48,012 bases of DNA from NCBI GenBank assembly GCA_045546815.1, contig JAZQDN010000133.1, positions 1 through 48,012 of the forward strand, read 5' to 3'. Made by a program: the position numbers and the translations under genes. The DNA comes from Eubacteriales bacterium (GTDB lineage: Bacteria; Bacillota; Clostridia; Oscillospirales; QAKW01). How positions within the stretch are numbered: the first letter of the stretch is position 1; each line of letters opens with the position of its first letter. Below are positions 2,087-31,938 of this stretch, in pieces. The notes under the pieces are model-generated. The model was not told the DNA's origin. It did not search any database and was given only the letters and a program-made list of their open reading frames with translations.

Positions 2087-4108
2087 ATGGAAAAAATTAC
2101 AGTAACTATAAACGGCAAAGTATGTACCGCCGATAAGGGTACAACCATTCTTGATATCGCAACAGCAAACGGCATTGAGATTCCCACGCTCTGCCACCAC
2201 AAAAATGTAAAGCTTTACGGTGCCTGCGGTATCTGTATAGTCGAAGGCGAAAATATGCCGAAGCTTATGCGTGCCTGCTCAACTGTAGCTATGGACGGCG
2301 CTGTGTATTTCACAGAATCAGAGCGTGTTAAAAAGGTTCGAAAAATCGCACTTGAGCTTCTTATGAGCGACCATGAGGGCGACTGCAAGGGTCCTTGCAC
2401 CCTTAACTGTCCTGCAGGTACTGACTGTCAGGGCTATGTAAAAGAAATTGCAAACGGCAACGACCGCAAGGCAGTCGAAATAATCAAAGAAAAGGTGCCG
2501 CTTCCCGCATCTATCGGCAGAGTGTGTCCGCATCCGTGCGAGACCGCATGCAGAAGAACAAAGGTCGAGCAGCCTATTTCAATAGCATATCTTAAGTCCT
2601 TTGCGGCAGATAACGTTTTAAAAACAAATCCCTATATCCCCGAGTGCGACGCACCGACGGGTAAAACCGTTGCCATTGTCGGCGGCGGTCCTGCGGGACT
2701 TACTGCGGCTTACTATCTTGCACTCAAGGGTCACTCCGTTACTATCTTTGATATGATGGAAAAAATGGGCGGTATGCTCCGATACGGTATCCCCGAATAC
2801 CGTCTGCCAAAAGCGGTGCTCGATGCAGAAATTGCAGAAATCGCATCACTCGGTGTTACATTTAAAAACAATGTGAAAATAGGCGAGCAGATAACTCTTG
2901 ATACTCTCGAGGCTGACTTTGACGCGGTTATCGTTGCTATCGGCGCCTGGAACAATATGGGTCTTCGCTGTACAGGTGAGGAGCTTTCGGGCGTTATGGG
3001 CGGCATTGAATTTTTGCGTAAAATCGCAAAAGGTGAGCCGTCGGGTATAGGTAAAAACGTTGCCATCGTCGGCGGCGGTAATACCGCTATGGACGCCTGC
3101 CGCAGTGCAGTTCGCGCAGGTGCCGAGAATGTTTATGTAATTTACAGACGTACCCGCGACGAAATGCCGGCAGAGGATATTGAAATTACAGAGGCAATGG
3201 AAGAGGGCGTTCAGTTCAAATTTCTGACAAACCCTGCAGAAATCATCGGAAAAGACGGAAAAGTTACCGCTGTCAAGCTTCAGATTATGGAACTCGGCGA
3301 GCCGGACGCAAGCGGCAGACGTGCCCCCGTTGCAGTAGACGGAAAGTTTGAAATATTGGATGTAGATAATGTTATTTGCGCTATCGGTCAAAAGGTTAAC
3401 GTAAAGGGCTTTGAGACTTTGGAACTTAACGCACGCGGCATAATCTCTGCCGACGAGCGCACCTTTGCAACCTCCCGCGACGGTGTGTTTGCAGTGGGCG
3501 ATGCTACTAATAGAGGCGCGTCAATCGCCATTGCCGCAATTGGTGAAGCGGGTAAGTGTGCAAGCGTTGTTGACGGATATCTCAACGGAATGGAAGTGCC
3601 TTATAAGGCTCCGTTTGTGTCGGAAAAACAGCCCACACCGGAATTTTATGAAAAGTTTGAAAAATGCGCACGCATAAAAATGCCTGTACGCCCTGCAGAC
3701 GAGAGAAAACACGACTTTTTGGAGATAAACTTGGGCTTTTCGGACGAGGATGCGCGCAAAGAGGCAAAGCGTTGTCTCGAGTGCGGCTGTCACGACTATA
3801 AGGACTGTAAGCTTATAAGATACGCAAATATGTACGACCTTGATGTCAAGCGTCTTGAGGGAGAAAAACACCTCTCGTTTACCGAAAAGCGCCTTGTAAA
3901 TATTGAGCGCGATCAAGGCAAATGCATACTGTGCAATCTCTGTGTACGCACCTGCCGCGAAAATGCGGGAAAGGGAATACTCGGACTTGTTGACCGCGGC
4001 TTTAAAACGGTTATCCGTCCCGAGTTTAAGGGCGATACCTCGCCTTGCGGTGATTGCCGTCTGTGTGCAGAGGCGTGTCCTACCGGTGCACTTAAAATTA
4101 TAAAATAA
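2087..4108 (+). CDS. Fe-S flavoprotein: NuoG/HydA-type N-terminal Fe-S region with an inserted GltD/NfnB-like FAD/NADP(H) domain (StnC/NfnA-like)
   Basis: N-terminal 2Fe-2S (PTLC, GACGIC, RAC), HEGDC, GRVCPHPCE, GGGPAG, GGGNTA + YRR, GD FAD motif, RCLECGC, C-terminal CILCNLC/CGDCRLC...CPTGAL. RBS AAGGAGG. Confidence 0.88.
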   Translation: MEKITVTINGKVCTADKGTTILDIATANGIEIPTLCHHKNVKLYGACGICIVEGENMPKLMRACSTVAMDGAVYFTESERVKKVRKIALELLMSDHEGDCKGPCTLNCPAGTDCQGYVKEIANGNDRKAVEIIKEKVPLPASIGRVCPHPCETACRRTKVEQPISIAYLKSFAADNVLKTNPYIPECDAPTGKTVAIVGGGPAGLTAAYYLALKGHSVTIFDMMEKMGGMLRYGIPEYRLPKAVLDAEIAEIASLGVTFKNNVKIGEQITLDTLEADFDAVIVAIGAWNNMGLRCTGEELSGVMGGIEFLRKIAKGEPSGIGKNVAIVGGGNTAMDACRSAVRAGAENVYVIYRRTRDEMPAEDIEITEAMEEGVQFKFLTNPAEIIGKDGKVTAVKLQIMELGEPDASGRRAPVAVDGKFEILDVDNVICAIGQKVNVKGFETLELNARGIISADERTFATSRDGVFAVGDATNRGASIAIAAIGEAGKCASVVDGYLNGMEVPYKAPFVSEKQPTPEFYEKFEKCARIKMPVRPADERKHDFLEINLGFSDEDARKEAKRCLECGCHDYKDCKLIRYANMYDLDVKRLEGEKHLSFTEKRLVNIERDQGKCILCNLCVRTCRENAGKGILGLVDRGFKTVIRPEFKGDTSPCGDCRLCAEACPTGALKIIK

Positions 4109-14459: not shown

Positions 14460-14816
14460 TTACAGTTTAGTGCCGCAATTTTTGCAGTATGTGTCACTTG
14501 CACCTGCGTGCTTTGAGCAGACGGGGCAGGTCTTTTTGAACTTCGACATTTCGGTGTTGACCTCTTTTAGTCTGAACTTGAGCACGTCGATTTTTTCCAT
14601 ACACTGTGCAATCGGACTTTCGTCGTCGCTCTGCTTCTTTTTAATATCGTATGTCAGCTTGCCGAGCTCGCAGAAGGTGCGCTCGATTTCACTTTTAAGC
14701 GTTGACGCCTTGTATTCGAGCTTAACGTAATCCTTTGCATCGACAGCCTTGTCAGTCACATATTTACCGGCTTTTTCCATCGAATCAATAATATCGTCAA
14801 TTATTGCCATTGTCAC
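14460..14816 (-). CDS. Coiled-coil protein with C-terminal double zinc-ribbon
   Basis: CPVC...YCKNCGTKL; AAGGAG RBS; own promoter upstream. Confidence 0.8.
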   Translation of the reverse strand: MTMAIIDDIIDSMEKAGKYVTDKAVDAKDYVKLEYKASTLKSEIERTFCELGKLTYDIKKKQSDDESPIAQCMEKIDVLKFRLKEVNTEMSKFKKTCPVCSKHAGASDTYCKNCGTKL

Positions 14817-14841: not shown

Positions 14842-14870
14842 ATTATATCACAGGTTATTGCATTTTACAA
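14842..14870 (-). promoter_or_regulatory. Sigma-A promoter for the zinc-ribbon/yabM/mazG operon
   Basis: TTGTAA-N17-TATAAT with TG on the minus strand. Confidence 0.7.
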
Positions 14871-14871
14871 C

Positions 14872-14913
14872 AAAAAGTAAAACGGCACAGCTGTTGTGCC
14901 GTGCCGTCTTACT
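14872..14913 (-). terminator. Terminator shared by tadA and the putative sRNA
   Basis: AGUAAGACGGCACGGC-ACAACA-GCUGUGCCGUUUUACU-UUUU; two G-U pairs form only on the minus strand. Confidence 0.85.
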
Positions 14914-14963
14914 GTTTTGCATTAAAAATAGGAGGGGGATTGAGATAAGTTTTATCTTATCTT
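14872..14963 (-). ncRNA. Putative C-rich trans-acting small RNA (~92 nt)
   Basis: Own extended -10 (TGGTATACT, 14978-14970), 5' hairpin AGAUAAG-AUAAAA-CUUAUCU, unpaired AAUCCCCCUCCU, 16-bp terminator; no ORF. Confidence 0.6.
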
Positions 14964-14969
14964 GTAAAC

Positions 14970-15023
14970 AGTATACCACGCCATAGCGCAAAAGTTGTTA
15001 TCAAACTTTTAACTTTTTGTTAA
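14970..15023 (-). promoter_or_regulatory. Promoter with OmpR/PhoB-type tandem boxes
   Basis: Minus strand TTAACA-N5-TTAAAA-N5-ATAACA-N20-TATACT (preceded by TGG); no consensus -35. Confidence 0.55.
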
Positions 15024-15477
15024 AAGCGGGACCTTTCCGCAGACGCGCAAAAAAATCCTTTATGATCTGCGAGCACTCGCCCTGCAAAACGCCAAAGGTG
15101 ACAAGCGGCTTGTGGTTTACGGGCAGTGCCATTACGTCAACTATTCCGCCCATCGCGCCCGCTTTTTTATCGGCTGTACCGATTACCACGCGGTCGATGC
15201 GCGAATTTATTATCGTGCCTGCGCACATAATGCACGGCTCGAGTGTCACGTACAGCGTGCACCCTGTCAGCCGCCAGGAGCCCAGCTTTTTGCACGCTTT
15301 TTCAATCGCGATGTGCTCTGCGTGTGCTACGGCACTCTGTGCGGTTTCGCGTCTGTTGTATCCGCGTGCAATAATTTTGCCGTCCTTCACTATGACAGCA
15401 CCGACAGGCACTTCCCCAAGAGCCTCCGCTCTTTTTGCCTGAATAAGTGCTTTTTTCATAAAATAAATATCGTCCAT
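15001..15477 (-). CDS. tadA: tRNA adenosine(34) deaminase
   Basis: GEVPVGAVIV, HAE, TLEPCIMC, DFFARLR. Confidence 0.95.
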   Translation of the reverse strand: MDDIYFMKKALIQAKRAEALGEVPVGAVIVKDGKIIARGYNRRETAQSAVAHAEHIAIEKACKKLGSWRLTGCTLYVTLEPCIMCAGTIINSRIDRVVIGTADKKAGAMGGIVDVMALPVNHKPLVTFGVLQGECSQIIKDFFARLRKGPAFNKKLKV

Positions 15478-28424: not shown

Positions 28425-29729
28425 CTATTCTGCTGTTGCTTCTGATAAAACAACGCTTATTTCAAGTTTTTTGGTGTTTCTGTAAACCGTGAGTGTAATT
28501 GAATCACCGGGCGATTTTTTGTTCTTCTCGGCGTCAAGCTCCGCCATTGAGCTGATGTCAACTCCGTCTACCGCTACGATGATATCGCCGTGCTTGAGGC
28601 CCTTTTTGTGAGCGTCGCTTTCTGGGTCAACGTATTCAACATAAACGCCTTCAGGGATTGAATAAATCTGTGCATAACTCTTGTCAATATCGCTGCCTGT
28701 TATGCCGATAAACGGTCTGTCCTTGATATATCCGTGCTGTATAAGCTCTTCAATAATGGTTGTAGCGCCTGCCATCGGAATTGCAAAGCCAATGCCTTCA
28801 TAACCGCTTTGAACAATCTTTGATGATGTTATACCGATTACCTGACCGTATGTGTTAACGAGCGGTCCGCCCGAATTTCCGGGGTTTATCGACGCGTCTG
28901 TCTGAATGAGCGTCATATAAAAGCTTTCAATAACGATTTGTCTGTTGAGCGCCGAAACAATGCCCGATGTCACCGTTCCCGCAAGCTCAAGACCGTAAGG
29001 ATTTCCGATTGCGATAACCGTTTCGCCTACCACGAGTGATTCGCTGTCGCCAAACTCTGCAGGCTGAAGTCCCGTCTCGTCGATCTTTATAACCGCGATG
29101 TCTGTGCGCGAGTCAGAACCGATAAGCTCTGCTGCGTACTCTTTTTCGTTTGCGAGCACAACCTTTATTGCGGTCGCGCCGTCAACAACGTGCGCGTTTG
29201 TGGAAATGTATCCGTCTTCACTTAAAATAATTCCCGTGCCCGAGCCCTGCGTTACCGTTGCGTTTCCTGCCGTTGTCACGATGATTCCGACAACCGAGTC
29301 TTTAACCTTTTCATAAACCTTCGGAATGGTGAGTGCATCTGTTGAGGGCGGCTGTGTTTCAAGCGATGGCACGTTTACGTTTTCGTTTTGCTCGTCTTTG
29401 TTTTCTTCTGTATCAACGCTTTGCTCAATTCTGTCCGGTACTTTGTTGTCATCGCCGGTGTGCTGTGCAACAAGCGATGTAAACAGAGCAATAACTGCAA
29501 TCAGCAGTATTACCGACACACCGCCGACCGCGATCAGCGCCCATTCAACGCCCGTCAGCTTTCTGCGCGGTTTTTTGGGCGGCTTGGGTGGCTTCGGAGT
29601 GTTTCCTGTGTAGCCCGTATATCCCGTGTACCCGTCATTTCCGATGTTACCGCCGTTGTAAGGGTTGGGATTTTGCCAGGTGTATTCACTGGTGTTTTGC
29701 TGGCCGAAATTATTTGTGTTTTCGTTCAT
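28425..29729 (-). CDS. htrA: HtrA/DegP-family membrane-anchored serine protease with PDZ domain
   Basis: TNAHVV, DIAV, QTDASINPGNSGGPL, PDZ. Start re-assigned to ATG 29729 (MNEN) behind AGGAG. Confidence 0.94.
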   Translation of the reverse strand: MNENTNNFGQQNTSEYTWQNPNPYNGGNIGNDGYTGYTGYTGNTPKPPKPPKKPRRKLTGVEWALIAVGGVSVILLIAVIALFTSLVAQHTGDDNKVPDRIEQSVDTEENKDEQNENVNVPSLETQPPSTDALTIPKVYEKVKDSVVGIIVTTAGNATVTQGSGTGIILSEDGYISTNAHVVDGATAIKVVLANEKEYAAELIGSDSRTDIAVIKIDETGLQPAEFGDSESLVVGETVIAIGNPYGLELAGTVTSGIVSALNRQIVIESFYMTLIQTDASINPGNSGGPLVNTYGQVIGITSSKIVQSGYEGIGFAIPMAGATTIIEELIQHGYIKDRPFIGITGSDIDKSYAQIYSIPEGVYVEYVDPESDAHKKGLKHGDIIVAVDGVDISSMAELDAEKNKKSPGDSITLTVYRNTKKLEISVVLSEATAE

Positions 29730-29739
29730 AGTATTTCTC

Positions 29740-31164
29740 CTAATCTGTGTATAGCGGAAGGGTGAAAATGAATTTTGCAAATTCGCCCTCTTTTGAAGAG
29801 AGGATTATGTCTTCGCCGTGCTCTTTAATAATATTTTTAACAAGAAACAGACCGATGCCTGTGCCTTTTTTGTTAAGGCCGCGGCTTTTATCTGCCTTGT
29901 AAAATCTTTCAAATATGTGCGCAGCATCGTCTTTAGAAATACCGCAGCCGGTGTTGTATACCGACAGATTGACTTTGCCTTTTACAACGCTTACGGTTAT
30001 CTTTATGCTTCCGTCCTGCGGTGTAAACTTAATTGCATTATCGACAAGATTGAATATAACTCTGTAAATTGCGTCGTAATCACCGACTGCAATAACGGGA
30101 TCGTCGGGGTAAACAAAATCAAGATTAATTTTGCTCTGCTCGATTTTATCCTCAAAGGCGAATAAAACCTTGCCTGCGGCCTCTACAATGTCAAAAGGCT
30201 TTTTAACGTATGACATCTGCCCTGACTGTATCTTTGCAATGTCGAGAAACGCCGCCACCATTCGTGACATTCTGTGCGCTTCCTCTGAAACGATCGCGAG
30301 ATATTTTTCGTGCTGGTCGGGCGGGATCGTGCCGTCGAGCATACCGTCAATAAACCCTGTGATTGTCGTCATCGGTGTGCGTAGCTCGTGAGACACGTCG
30401 GCAACAAAGCCTTTTCTCATATCGTCAAGGCTTTCAATACCGTCCGCCATTGAGTTGAAAGCACGGGCGAGGGGCGCGAACTCGTTTGTTTCCTTTACCT
30501 TAATTCGCTTTGAAAAATCGCCCTTTGCATATGCGTTTGCGGCATAGTACATCTGGTACATCGGCTGCGTCATCTGTCGCGTTGTAAATATAAGCGCAAT
30601 AAATGCAATTATCAGCACCGCAACTCCGCACGTTATATATAATAGGAAGTTTCCTAAAAAAATTGACGTGATATTGAGCTCTGTCGTGGTAACAAACACA
30701 GCCCCGCTGACCTCGTTGTCATCTGACATAACAGGCACTCCCACGGTATATCCCACTGTAGTACCGCGGGTGCCAAAGGAGTGCGAGCGCCTGTATACGT
30801 TACCCGAAAGCACACTTTCTACGACCGAGTGCGGAATAAAGTTGCCGGCCTTATCGCTTTTTTTAGAAAATGTAGAAAACTCAATAGCACAGTGTGAGTC
30901 GAACACGACAATATCGCTGTTCATCGTCTCTTTTATAGTGGATATCGATGACTCAAATATACTGCCTGCAAGGATATTGTAGTTTTTAGGCATAGTAGCG
31001 ACAGTATGTGCAACCTTGTTCGCGGCACGCTCCATGCTCTGACTCTGGTTATTGAAATTGCGCACGCCGATTGCGGCACTCGTGGAAAATCCAAGCAGCG
31101 AAACGGTAAGCGCCACAATAAGCACGCATATGCTGTAATATTTTAAAAATATCCGTTTATGCAT
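29740..31164 (-). CDS. HAMP-domain sensor histidine kinase
   Basis: 2 TM, HAMP, SHELRTP H-box, NLVDNAIKF, FERFYKAD.SR, GTGIGL. Confidence 0.95.
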   Translation of the reverse strand: MHKRIFLKYYSICVLIVALTVSLLGFSTSAAIGVRNFNNQSQSMERAANKVAHTVATMPKNYNILAGSIFESSISTIKETMNSDIVVFDSHCAIEFSTFSKKSDKAGNFIPHSVVESVLSGNVYRRSHSFGTRGTTVGYTVGVPVMSDDNEVSGAVFVTTTELNITSIFLGNFLLYITCGVAVLIIAFIALIFTTRQMTQPMYQMYYAANAYAKGDFSKRIKVKETNEFAPLARAFNSMADGIESLDDMRKGFVADVSHELRTPMTTITGFIDGMLDGTIPPDQHEKYLAIVSEEAHRMSRMVAAFLDIAKIQSGQMSYVKKPFDIVEAAGKVLFAFEDKIEQSKINLDFVYPDDPVIAVGDYDAIYRVIFNLVDNAIKFTPQDGSIKITVSVVKGKVNLSVYNTGCGISKDDAAHIFERFYKADKSRGLNKKGTGIGLFLVKNIIKEHGEDIILSSKEGEFAKFIFTLPLYTD

Positions 31165-31172
31165 AAAATGTT

Positions 31173-31862
31173 TTATCGGGTCTCAAACTTGTAACCCACA
31201 CCCCATACAGTTTTGATTGCCCATTTTTCCGATACGCCTTCCAGCTTTTCGCGGATTCTTTTTATGTGAACATCTACTGTGCGTGAGTCACCGAAGTATT
31301 TGAAGCCCCATATTTCGTCGAGCAGCTGGTCGCGCGTATATACGCGGTTGGGGTTTTTGGCAAGGTGGTACAAAAGCTCAATTTCCTTGGGCGGTGCGTC
31401 CACGTCAACGTCCTTTACACGCAGCTTGTAGTTTGTAAGCGAAACATAAAGGTTTTCGTAAACAACCTCCTGCATATCCTCGGCGGGAGCTACATCGTTG
31501 TCTTTTGAACGACGTATAACGCTTTTTATGCGCGCAATAAGTTCTTTACTCTCAAACGGCTTTGTAACGTAGTCGTCAGCGCCGAGCTCAAGCCCTAAAA
31601 CCTTGTCAAAGGTCTCGCCCTTTGCAGAGAGCATAATAATAGGTGTTTTTGACACCTTGCGAATATCGCGGCATACCTCCCAGCCGTCTTTTTCGGGAAG
31701 CATAATATCAAGTAAAACCAAATCAAAGCTGTCAGCCATAAACTTGCTTATAGCCTGAGTTCCGGTATGTGCACATTCAACCTGATATCCTTCTTTAATA
31801 AGATATAAACTCAAAAGGTCGCAAATGTTTTTCTCGTCATCAACAACAAGTATCTTACTCAT
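31173..31862 (-). CDS. OmpR/PhoB-family response regulator (ResD/SrrA-like recognition helix)
   Basis: VVDDE, LLDIMLP, GADDYVTKPF, GDSRTVDVHIKRIREKL, TVWGVGYKF. Confidence 0.96.
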   Translation of the reverse strand: MSKILVVDDEKNICDLLSLYLIKEGYQVECAHTGTQAISKFMADSFDLVLLDIMLPEKDGWEVCRDIRKVSKTPIIMLSAKGETFDKVLGLELGADDYVTKPFESKELIARIKSVIRRSKDNDVAPAEDMQEVVYENLYVSLTNYKLRVKDVDVDAPPKEIELLYHLAKNPNRVYTRDQLLDEIWGFKYFGDSRTVDVHIKRIREKLEGVSEKWAIKTVWGVGYKFETR

Positions 31863-31895: not shown

Positions 31896-31938
31896 ACTAT
31901 ACCAAATATTTCAAGTCAATAGGTTACGAAAATGTGAA
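31896..31938 (-). promoter_or_regulatory. Promoter of the RR-HK-htrA operon with putative autoregulatory tandem box
   Basis: Minus strand TTCACA-N5-GTAACC-N20-TATAGT (preceded by TGG). Confidence 0.6.

Follow-up and report, generated by a model that had tools for sequence, protein, structure and literature searches.

The DNA analysed here, called the window throughout, is a stretch of 48,012 nucleotides from an Eubacteriales bacterium, and two loci on its minus strand concern us (Table 1). At the first, a predicted small RNA (sRNA) gene lies between tadA, which encodes a tRNA adenosine-34 deaminase, and a gene for a 118-aa protein. The second is an operon encoding a response regulator (RR), a sensor histidine kinase and an HtrA/DegP-type serine protease. 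The 54-nt stretch upstream of the RNA (14970-15023) contains three phased hexamers and an extended -10 element. The order tadA, sRNA, ORF of about 120 aa and flippase gene was found in the window and in the two loci of genus g3 that were checked by ORF layout.

Table 1. Features of the sRNA locus and of the RR operon in the window, with the basis or detail of each assignment.
Feature	Position	Strand	Basis or detail
tadA, tRNA adenosine-34 deaminase	15001-15477	-	Pfam and NCBIfam matches
sRNA promoter hexamers, three, 11-bp-phased	14996-15023	-	direct reading
Box 1, TTAACA	15023-15018	-	about -60 to -55
Box 2, TTAAAA	15012-15007	-	about -49 to -44
Box 3, ATAACA	15001-14996	-	about -38 to -33
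Extended -10, TGGTATACT	14970-14978	-	TATACT 14975-14970, TGG 14978-14976, no usable -35
Predicted small RNA, about 93-98 nt	14866-14963	-	predicted 5' end
sRNA 5' hairpin, 7 bp	14962-14943	-	fold
sRNA unpaired invariant stretch AAUCCCCCUCCUAUUUUUAAUGCAAA, 26 nt	14941-14916	-	fold and alignment
Anti-Shine-Dalgarno CCCCCUCCU within the unpaired stretch	14938-14930	-	sequence
sRNA terminator hairpin, 16 bp, then U-run	14913-14876	-	fold
Downstream sigma-70 promoter TTGTAA-N17-TATAAT with TG, for the 118-aa gene	14842-14870	-	promoter scan
RR operon promoter	31896-31938	-	TTCACA 31938-31933, N5, GTAACC 31927-31922, N20, TATAGT 31901-31896
OmpR/PhoB-family response regulator, WalR/MtrA-like	31173-31862	-	Response_reg and Trans_reg_C
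Sensor histidine kinase, HAMP-HisKA-HATPase, no PAS match	29740-31164	-	domain search
HtrA/DegP-type serine protease with PDZ, last operon gene	28425-29780	-	domain search

The RNA folds with a minimum free energy of -36.6 kcal/mol (z = -8.3), a stability reached by none of 200 shuffled sequences, and a covariance model matches positions 14871-14963 with 96.4 bits. Compensatory changes were found in all 18 base pairs and 97.2% of cells were paired, in an alignment that had been fitted to the model. Both hairpins covary, and the unpaired stretch between them is invariant or nearly so across the alignment. The CCUCCU that it contains is an anti-Shine-Dalgarno (anti-SD) sequence. A conserved unpaired stretch with covarying hairpins is the signature of a putative trans-acting sRNA with a seed, and the predicted gene has the promoter, terminator and conserved structure of such an sRNA. 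No ORF of at least 50 aa covers it on either strand. A separate sigma-70 promoter serves the 118-aa gene that follows, and thus the sRNA forms its own transcription unit, present as a single copy in this genome.

No Rfam family matched this RNA. A search of Rfam gave no gathering-level match across the whole window, and the 13 matches at E<=10 around the RNA were all at chance level, with RsaE not among them. A search of full-text literature with the seed motif and with WalR plus small RNA returned no description of it. Duplex energies with 2994 candidate start regions had a mean of -12.0 kcal/mol (sd 3.5) and a best value of -26.4 kcal/mol; the best duplexes contain long loops and none stands out among the 2994. 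Ungapped complementarity to the 28-nt sRNA core did not exceed 23 of 28 positions except at its own gene.

The 118-aa protein encoded next to the sRNA (14460-14816, minus strand) combines an N-terminus predicted to form a coiled coil with a CxxC...CxxC zinc ribbon at the C-terminus, and has no match in Pfam or NCBIfam. In both g3 loci checked, the sRNA is likewise followed by an ORF of about this length, and in the window the 118-aa gene has its own strong promoter.

By BLAST, the sRNA was located downstream of tadA in 41 of the 49 genomes of the family. It is present in this genome and in all 11 others of genus g1, in 28 of 30 genomes of g3 and, weakly, in one of seven genomes of g2 (G007). 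Its exact 24-nt core was found in 33 species-level genomes, all of them metagenome-assembled genomes of uncultured gut Clostridia. In five closed or near-closed genomes of other families, a terminator alone and no sRNA lies downstream of tadA, and no cultured relative was found to carry the RNA. Weak covariance-model matches (28-40 bits) occur in 17 of 143 genomes outside the family; those of G072, which is syntenic after tadA, and G141 look genuine, and those of G170 and G061 are doubtful. The match in G160 was not convincing.

Three divergent loci were also observed. A g1 variant (G040:C206, L009) lacks the AU-rich half of the invariant stretch (UUUUUAAUGCAAA...), has a different terminator directly after CCCCCUCCUA, and scores 44.7 bits, where the remaining loci of the family reach 68-98. 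In G007 (G007:C7:1249-1338, L131), alone among the g2 genomes in having the sRNA, TTCAAA-N5-ATAACA-N20 is kept. In the other-family genome G072 (C23, about 29170-29330, L180), the divergent sRNA downstream of tadA is preceded by three TTAATA-like phased hexamers and N20-TATACT.

A previous reading made from the sequence alone (the sequence-only reading) had described the sRNA promoter as TTAACA-N5-TTAAAA-N5-ATAACA-N20-TATACT and the RR operon promoter as TTCACA-N5-GTAACC-N20-TATAGT, each with TGG just before the -10. Both are letter-exact on the minus strand, including the TGG (14978-14976 and 31904-31902, respectively), and the geometry that they were said to share, namely 11-bp-periodic hexamers, N20, TGG and no -35, is present at both promoters of this genome. 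TGn thus adjoins the sRNA -10 hexamer, as in an extended -10 promoter. In a sigma-70 consensus scan no -35/-10 pair used either -10, which upholds the statement that neither promoter has a properly spaced consensus -35. The boxes had also been placed over the end of tadA; boxes 1 and 2 do lie within its last codons, and box 3 overlaps the TGA stop (15003-15001). At the RR operon an alternative promoter, TTGACT-N17-TATAGA, was rejected: its -10 lacks the final T and TTGACT is unconserved in relatives. This TTGACT lies within the RR spacer, and just 12 nt separate it from TATAGT.

Among 30 aligned sRNA loci, the proximal hexamer pair TT[CAT]A[ACT]A-N5-[AC]TAACA, a spacer of exactly 20 nt, TGn and TATA[CA]T were each kept without exception, and the -10 is TATACT itself in 29. 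The C of TAACA is invariant, and that of TATACT is found in 29 of the 30. Column conservation in the boxes is mostly at least 90%, versus 30-70% in the 20-nt spacer. In g3, some 75 nt separate the end of tadA from the RNA and the boxes lie wholly in non-coding DNA; tadA coding therefore does not explain their conservation. The g3 promoters have two further phased hexamers upstream (TTCAYA-N5-TTCAT). If the -10 is assumed to occupy its usual place at -12 to -7, the centre of the proximal pair falls near -41, where tandem dimers of OmpR/PhoB-family response regulators classically sit at class-II promoters, and the pair is a candidate site for an OmpR-family dimer. With repeats at about -60, -49 and -38, no sigma-70 -35 and a conserved geometry, the architecture is that of an OmpR-type class-II promoter. 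In our judgement there is about an even chance that the 54-nt stretch serves an undescribed trans-acting sRNA as its activator-dependent promoter.

The sequence-only reading had assigned the regulator of the second locus to the OmpR family, and the domain searches agree, with a receiver domain (PF00072, 105 bits) and a winged-helix Trans_reg_C domain (PF00486, 94 bits) found. Its best NCBIfam model is YycF, followed by MtrA; the YycF score of 257.9 bits lies below the 340-bit cut-off of the WalR/YycF equivalog (NF040534), and the orthologues in five of five genomes score 250-270 bits, each being the top YycF-model scorer of its genome. The RR is single-copy. Orthologues with 72-92% identity are present in 47 of the 49 family genomes, with the next paralogue at 45% or less, and order-wide 86 of 143 non-family genomes have a match at E<=1e-85. 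In 41 of 47 genomes the best HtrA match shares contig and strand with the RR and follows it at a distance of 1.4-2.3 kb, a count obtained by comparing two result tables (RR orthologues and HtrA matches). Taken at its longest, the HtrA ORF shares 41 nt with the end of the kinase gene; as relatives align with it only from about residue 20-30, the true start is probably downstream of 29780.

This genome also carries a second two-component system (TCS)-HtrA module (G000 C117:23475-29641, L107) in the order ftsK-RR2-HK2-170-aa ORF-HtrA2. HtrA2 is 40% identical to the HtrA of the window and RR2 is the second-best scorer of the WalR model. Clear orthologues were found in g1 only.

Upstream of the RR operon, the promoter family has the consensus TTTGTTcAcAaTTTcTTcAcCCATTTT (with TGTTcAcA-N5-TTcAcC conserved), then a spacer of variable sequence, then TATACT. 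Of 29 RR promoters, 19 have a 20-nt spacer and 10 a 19-nt one; TATACT occurs in 24 of the 29, and only 14 retain TGG/TGn next to the -10. The strict box-plus-spacing pattern was matched by seven of 22 regions upstream of RR orthologues from other families, where shuffled controls averaged 0.04 matches, with a highest value of 2 in 1000. The RR promoters of G072 and G061 show the tandem-repeat architecture as well. A tandem-repeat promoter of putative activator type is an old property of the RR's own operon, and the conserved RR-type repeat suggests autoregulation.

The RR promoter family thus has a repeat like the sRNA boxes, 19-20 nt from the same unusual -10; the sRNA and RR promoters use TATACT, versus TATAAT at neighbouring promoters. 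The pattern offered in the sequence-only reading, DTMAMM-N5-DTMAMM-N17-TGNTANNNT, has exactly two matches on both strands of the 1,892,339-bp genome, and these are the two promoters; as the pattern was derived from these sites, the scan shows that it is not common and nothing further. A 23-nt matrix was derived solely from sRNA promoters of relatives (24 distinct sequences), and this genome was scanned with it over 3.8 million positions. The RR promoter scored 20.3 bits, third among non-self sites, and the next site 15.4 bits. The expected number of sites of at least 20 bits was 0.15 on the genome background and up to 1.4 at 30% GC, and none of ten order-3 Markov genomes contained one. The RR promoter is the only one of the three top sites that is both conserved and placed as a promoter.

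The other top matrix matches were discarded as members of the regulon. C41:4348 falls within a 1552-aa ORF in antisense orientation, C103:6686 lies in the leader of the PEPCK gene with a box unconserved in 11 g1 relatives, and those on C34, C65, C54 and C134 lie in or against ORFs. The PEPCK (GTP) gene (C103:6640-6760, L109) has a conserved TTGCAT-N17-TATAAT promoter and an A+T-rich leader.

The reverse comparison was less uniform. A matrix of RR promoters gave the sRNA promoter of this genome -2.7 bits and all 11 g1 sRNA loci 0.6 bits or less; in g3, 14 of 19 sRNA promoters scored 11.8-21 bits. Cross-matrix scores are moderate overall (medians 9.2 and 7.1 bits), and the proximal half-site differs consistently, being nTAACA at the sRNA versus TTCACC, TTAAAC or GTAACC at the RR. 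The pattern TTHAHA-N6-TMAHN-N19-20-TATAMT has 21 matches in five genomes of 99-100% completeness. Ten of these are the sRNA and RR promoters, found in all five genomes, and the other 11 do not recur; the reversed pattern gave five matches in the same genomes. A further g3 site (G034:C11, about 3634-3676, L111) reads TTCACA-N5-GTTCAT...TATAAT and is followed after about 90 nt by an intrinsic-terminator-like hairpin; here a promoter of this type may drive a second small transcript.

The expectation that sRNA and RR orthologues co-occur holds in most of the family, with the RR in 47 and the sRNA in 41 of 49 genomes, but not strictly. All seven g2 genomes have the RR operon, and the sRNA was found in G007 only. 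G032 (97% complete) has the sRNA with intact boxes, and a search for the RR gave no orthologue there; the adjacent yigZ-like gene is missing as well, which suggests an assembly gap. No co-variation of RR and boxes was seen in G072, where TTAATA-type boxes at the sRNA stand against TTCACA/TTCACG at the RR promoter. Of the OmpR-type regulators, the RR alone was shown to be near-universal among carriers of the sRNA.

The RR at 31173-31862 is the most likely regulator of the sRNA, since its own operon has the same repeat type, the same distance and the TATACT -10. We propose that this WalR/MtrA-like RR autoregulates the RR-kinase-HtrA operon and activates the anti-SD sRNA, as a functional analogue of the CiaRH-HtrA-csRNA system, and we regard this explanation as evenly balanced between right and wrong. 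The sRNA and the operon are probably switched on together. When triggered, by a signal that is presumably envelope or secretion stress given HtrA, the kinase would phosphorylate the RR, which would act as an activator rather than a repressor and increase expression of both its own operon and the sRNA. The unpaired CCCCCUCCU of the sRNA would then pair with Shine-Dalgarno regions and lower the translation of target mRNAs. The label of a stress circuit is taken from HtrA alone. A bolder version, which is possible and yet rather doubtful, is that a single-copy WalR/MtrA-like TCS, conserved across a whole order of gut Clostridia, would be positively autoregulated, unlike canonical WalRK, and that in one uncultured family its core direct regulon would have shrunk to just HtrA and the anti-SD sRNA. 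The 26-nt seed would then be the chief means by which the system tunes down translation globally under envelope stress, and the streptococcal CiaRH-HtrA-csRNA logic would have been reinvented convergently from another RR lineage and with another promoter geometry.

The alternative that survives best, although we consider it unlikely, is that a different OmpR/PhoB-family regulator, RR2 of C117 or another, binds the sRNA boxes, and that the likeness of the two promoters reflects a generic preference for TTnAnA repeats. OmpR-family half-sites look alike in general, and two regulators could give such a resemblance. Candidates are available: genomes encode 3-8 Trans_reg_C/OmpR-type regulators (6-8 in complete genomes, only 3 in G033 and G030), and this genome has the second RR-kinase-HtrA-type module. 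The DNA-binding domain of the RR is about equally similar to those of SaeR, PhoB and WalR (67-78 bits), so its binding specificity cannot be read from its sequence. The differing proximal half-sites and the failure of the reciprocal matrix in g1 also fit a different regulator, as does the resemblance of the boxes to the TT(A/T/C)ACA repeats of Bacillus subtilis PhoP. However, only one of the 59 sites that exceed 8 bits with the sRNA matrix is RR-proximal, namely the RR operon promoter; no other RR promoter of this genome scores, that of RR2 included. The shared pattern has just three matches in each of G034 and G038, at the sRNA and RR promoters and at one unrelated site. At E<=1e-55, no RR2-like protein was matched in any of the seven g2 genomes, G007 included, or in 13 of the 30 g3 genomes, and the majority of these 13 have the sRNA; those without RR2 include the near-complete G017, G028, G030 and G033, all with the sRNA and intact boxes. 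The 19-20-nt spacing and unusual TATACT -10 shared by both promoters also argue for the RR of the window.

It is less likely still that the sRNA has no dedicated regulator and is transcribed constitutively from its extended -10, with the upstream block acting as a UP-like element, by curvature or as a non-OmpR site, and with the likeness to the RR promoter coincidental. An extended -10 can work without any activator, and it is established that such promoters can do without a -35; the region is A+T-rich, and two of the three top matrix matches proved to be chance. On the other hand, the invariant C positions and the exact 11-bp phasing and 20-nt spacing, kept in 30 of 30 loci while the spacer sequence varies, fit a sequence-specific protein better than a UP element, and the same architecture stands at RR-orthologue promoters across families. 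A cis-acting role of the RNA, as leader or attenuator for the downstream operon of the 118-aa gene and the flippase, with the boxes regulating that operon, would fit the tadA-RNA-ORF-flippase synteny and possible terminator read-through, but is very improbable given the strong independent promoter between terminator and ORF, the TTGACT-N17-TATAAT-like promoters in the same interval in g3, a very stable 16-bp terminator hairpin with no evident alternative fold, the seed-like conservation of the unpaired sequence rather than of a ligand-pocket-like structure, and the lack of any Rfam cis-regulatory match.

The regulatory RNA biology of the abundant uncultured gut Clostridia is almost blank, and here sequence alone yields a new, strongly conserved sRNA family together with its putative seed, promoter code and order-wide candidate regulator. 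If the proposed control by the RR is true, the system would be an independent instance of the design that joins an envelope-stress TCS, HtrA and an anti-SD sRNA, and the regulon would be compact, consisting of two promoters, one protein and one RNA, all accessible through recombinant protein and surrogate hosts. It would also mean that WalR-like systems in Clostridia may be wired unlike the Bacillus paradigm, with autoregulation.

Several known systems resemble parts of this arrangement. PhoP-activated promoters of B. subtilis have tandem TT(A/T/C)ACA repeats with about 11-bp phasing, located at about -60 to -20, and no -35. In contrast to that system, no link to a Pho regulon was found at the OmpR-type regulators of this genome, none of the three having adjoining phosphate-transport genes. 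The wal operon of B. subtilis ends with an HtrA-type gene, and TTAACA and ATAACA of the sRNA promoter fit the B. subtilis Wal consensus TGTWAH-N5-TGTWAH in its reverse complement, DTWACA-N5-DTWACA. A HAMP-HisKA-HATPase kinase without a PAS match recalls the WalK described for Clostridioides difficile, and canonical Wal operons are reported in the same account as not autoregulated (PMC9210968). The kinase here is not of the PAS-bearing Bacillus type and the operon has a putative autoregulatory repeat; by these marks the predicted system is WalR-like and not canonical WalR. A literature search for WalR with small RNA found no Wal-controlled sRNA.

The two precedents cited in the sequence-only reading, CiaRH acting on htrA and the csRNAs and ResDE/SrrAB acting on RoxS/RsaE, are as claimed, and CiaR/csRNA and ResD/RoxS serve as precedents for TCS-activated anti-SD sRNAs (PMC3091779, PMC4409812). 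The likeness to CiaRH lies in an OmpR-family regulator linked with HtrA and in sRNA promoters in which a direct hexamer repeat with N5 replaces the -35, as described for the csRNAs (PMC3091779), with control by the RR predicted here from the DNA. The RNA likewise has two stem-loops flanking an unpaired anti-SD, as the csRNAs do according to that description. The differences are equally clear. The CiaR box is given as NTTAAG-N5-TTTAAG, 10 nt from the -10 and with an essential G (PMC3091779), whereas the boxes here are of TTMAMA type without a terminal G, form 2-5 phased hexamers and stand 20 nt from the -10 in 30 of 30 loci. An anti-start codon is described for the csRNAs, CAU in 53 of 61 (PMC3091779); the unpaired CAAUCCCCCUCCUAUUUUUAAUGCAAAAC here has no CAU and none lies 5' of the anti-SD, and the CAA (anti-UUG) in the unpaired stretch is not kept in g3. 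There is one copy per genome here versus five csRNAs in Streptococcus pneumoniae, the two systems lack sequence homology, and htrA is here inside the TCS operon.

With ResDE/SrrAB and RoxS/RsaE, the system shares a C-rich sRNA, here putatively SD-pairing, and a conserved element upstream of the promoter that points to a TCS regulator (PMC4409812). The description of RoxS/RsaE there includes multiple C-rich regions (CRR1-4) and places the ResD site near -65, versus a single C-rich region and sites from -60 to -33 here, and no match to the Rfam model was obtained. The predicted sRNA is thus a member of neither the csRNA nor the RoxS/RsaE family, and is plausibly a new case within the known class of two-component-controlled anti-SD sRNAs.
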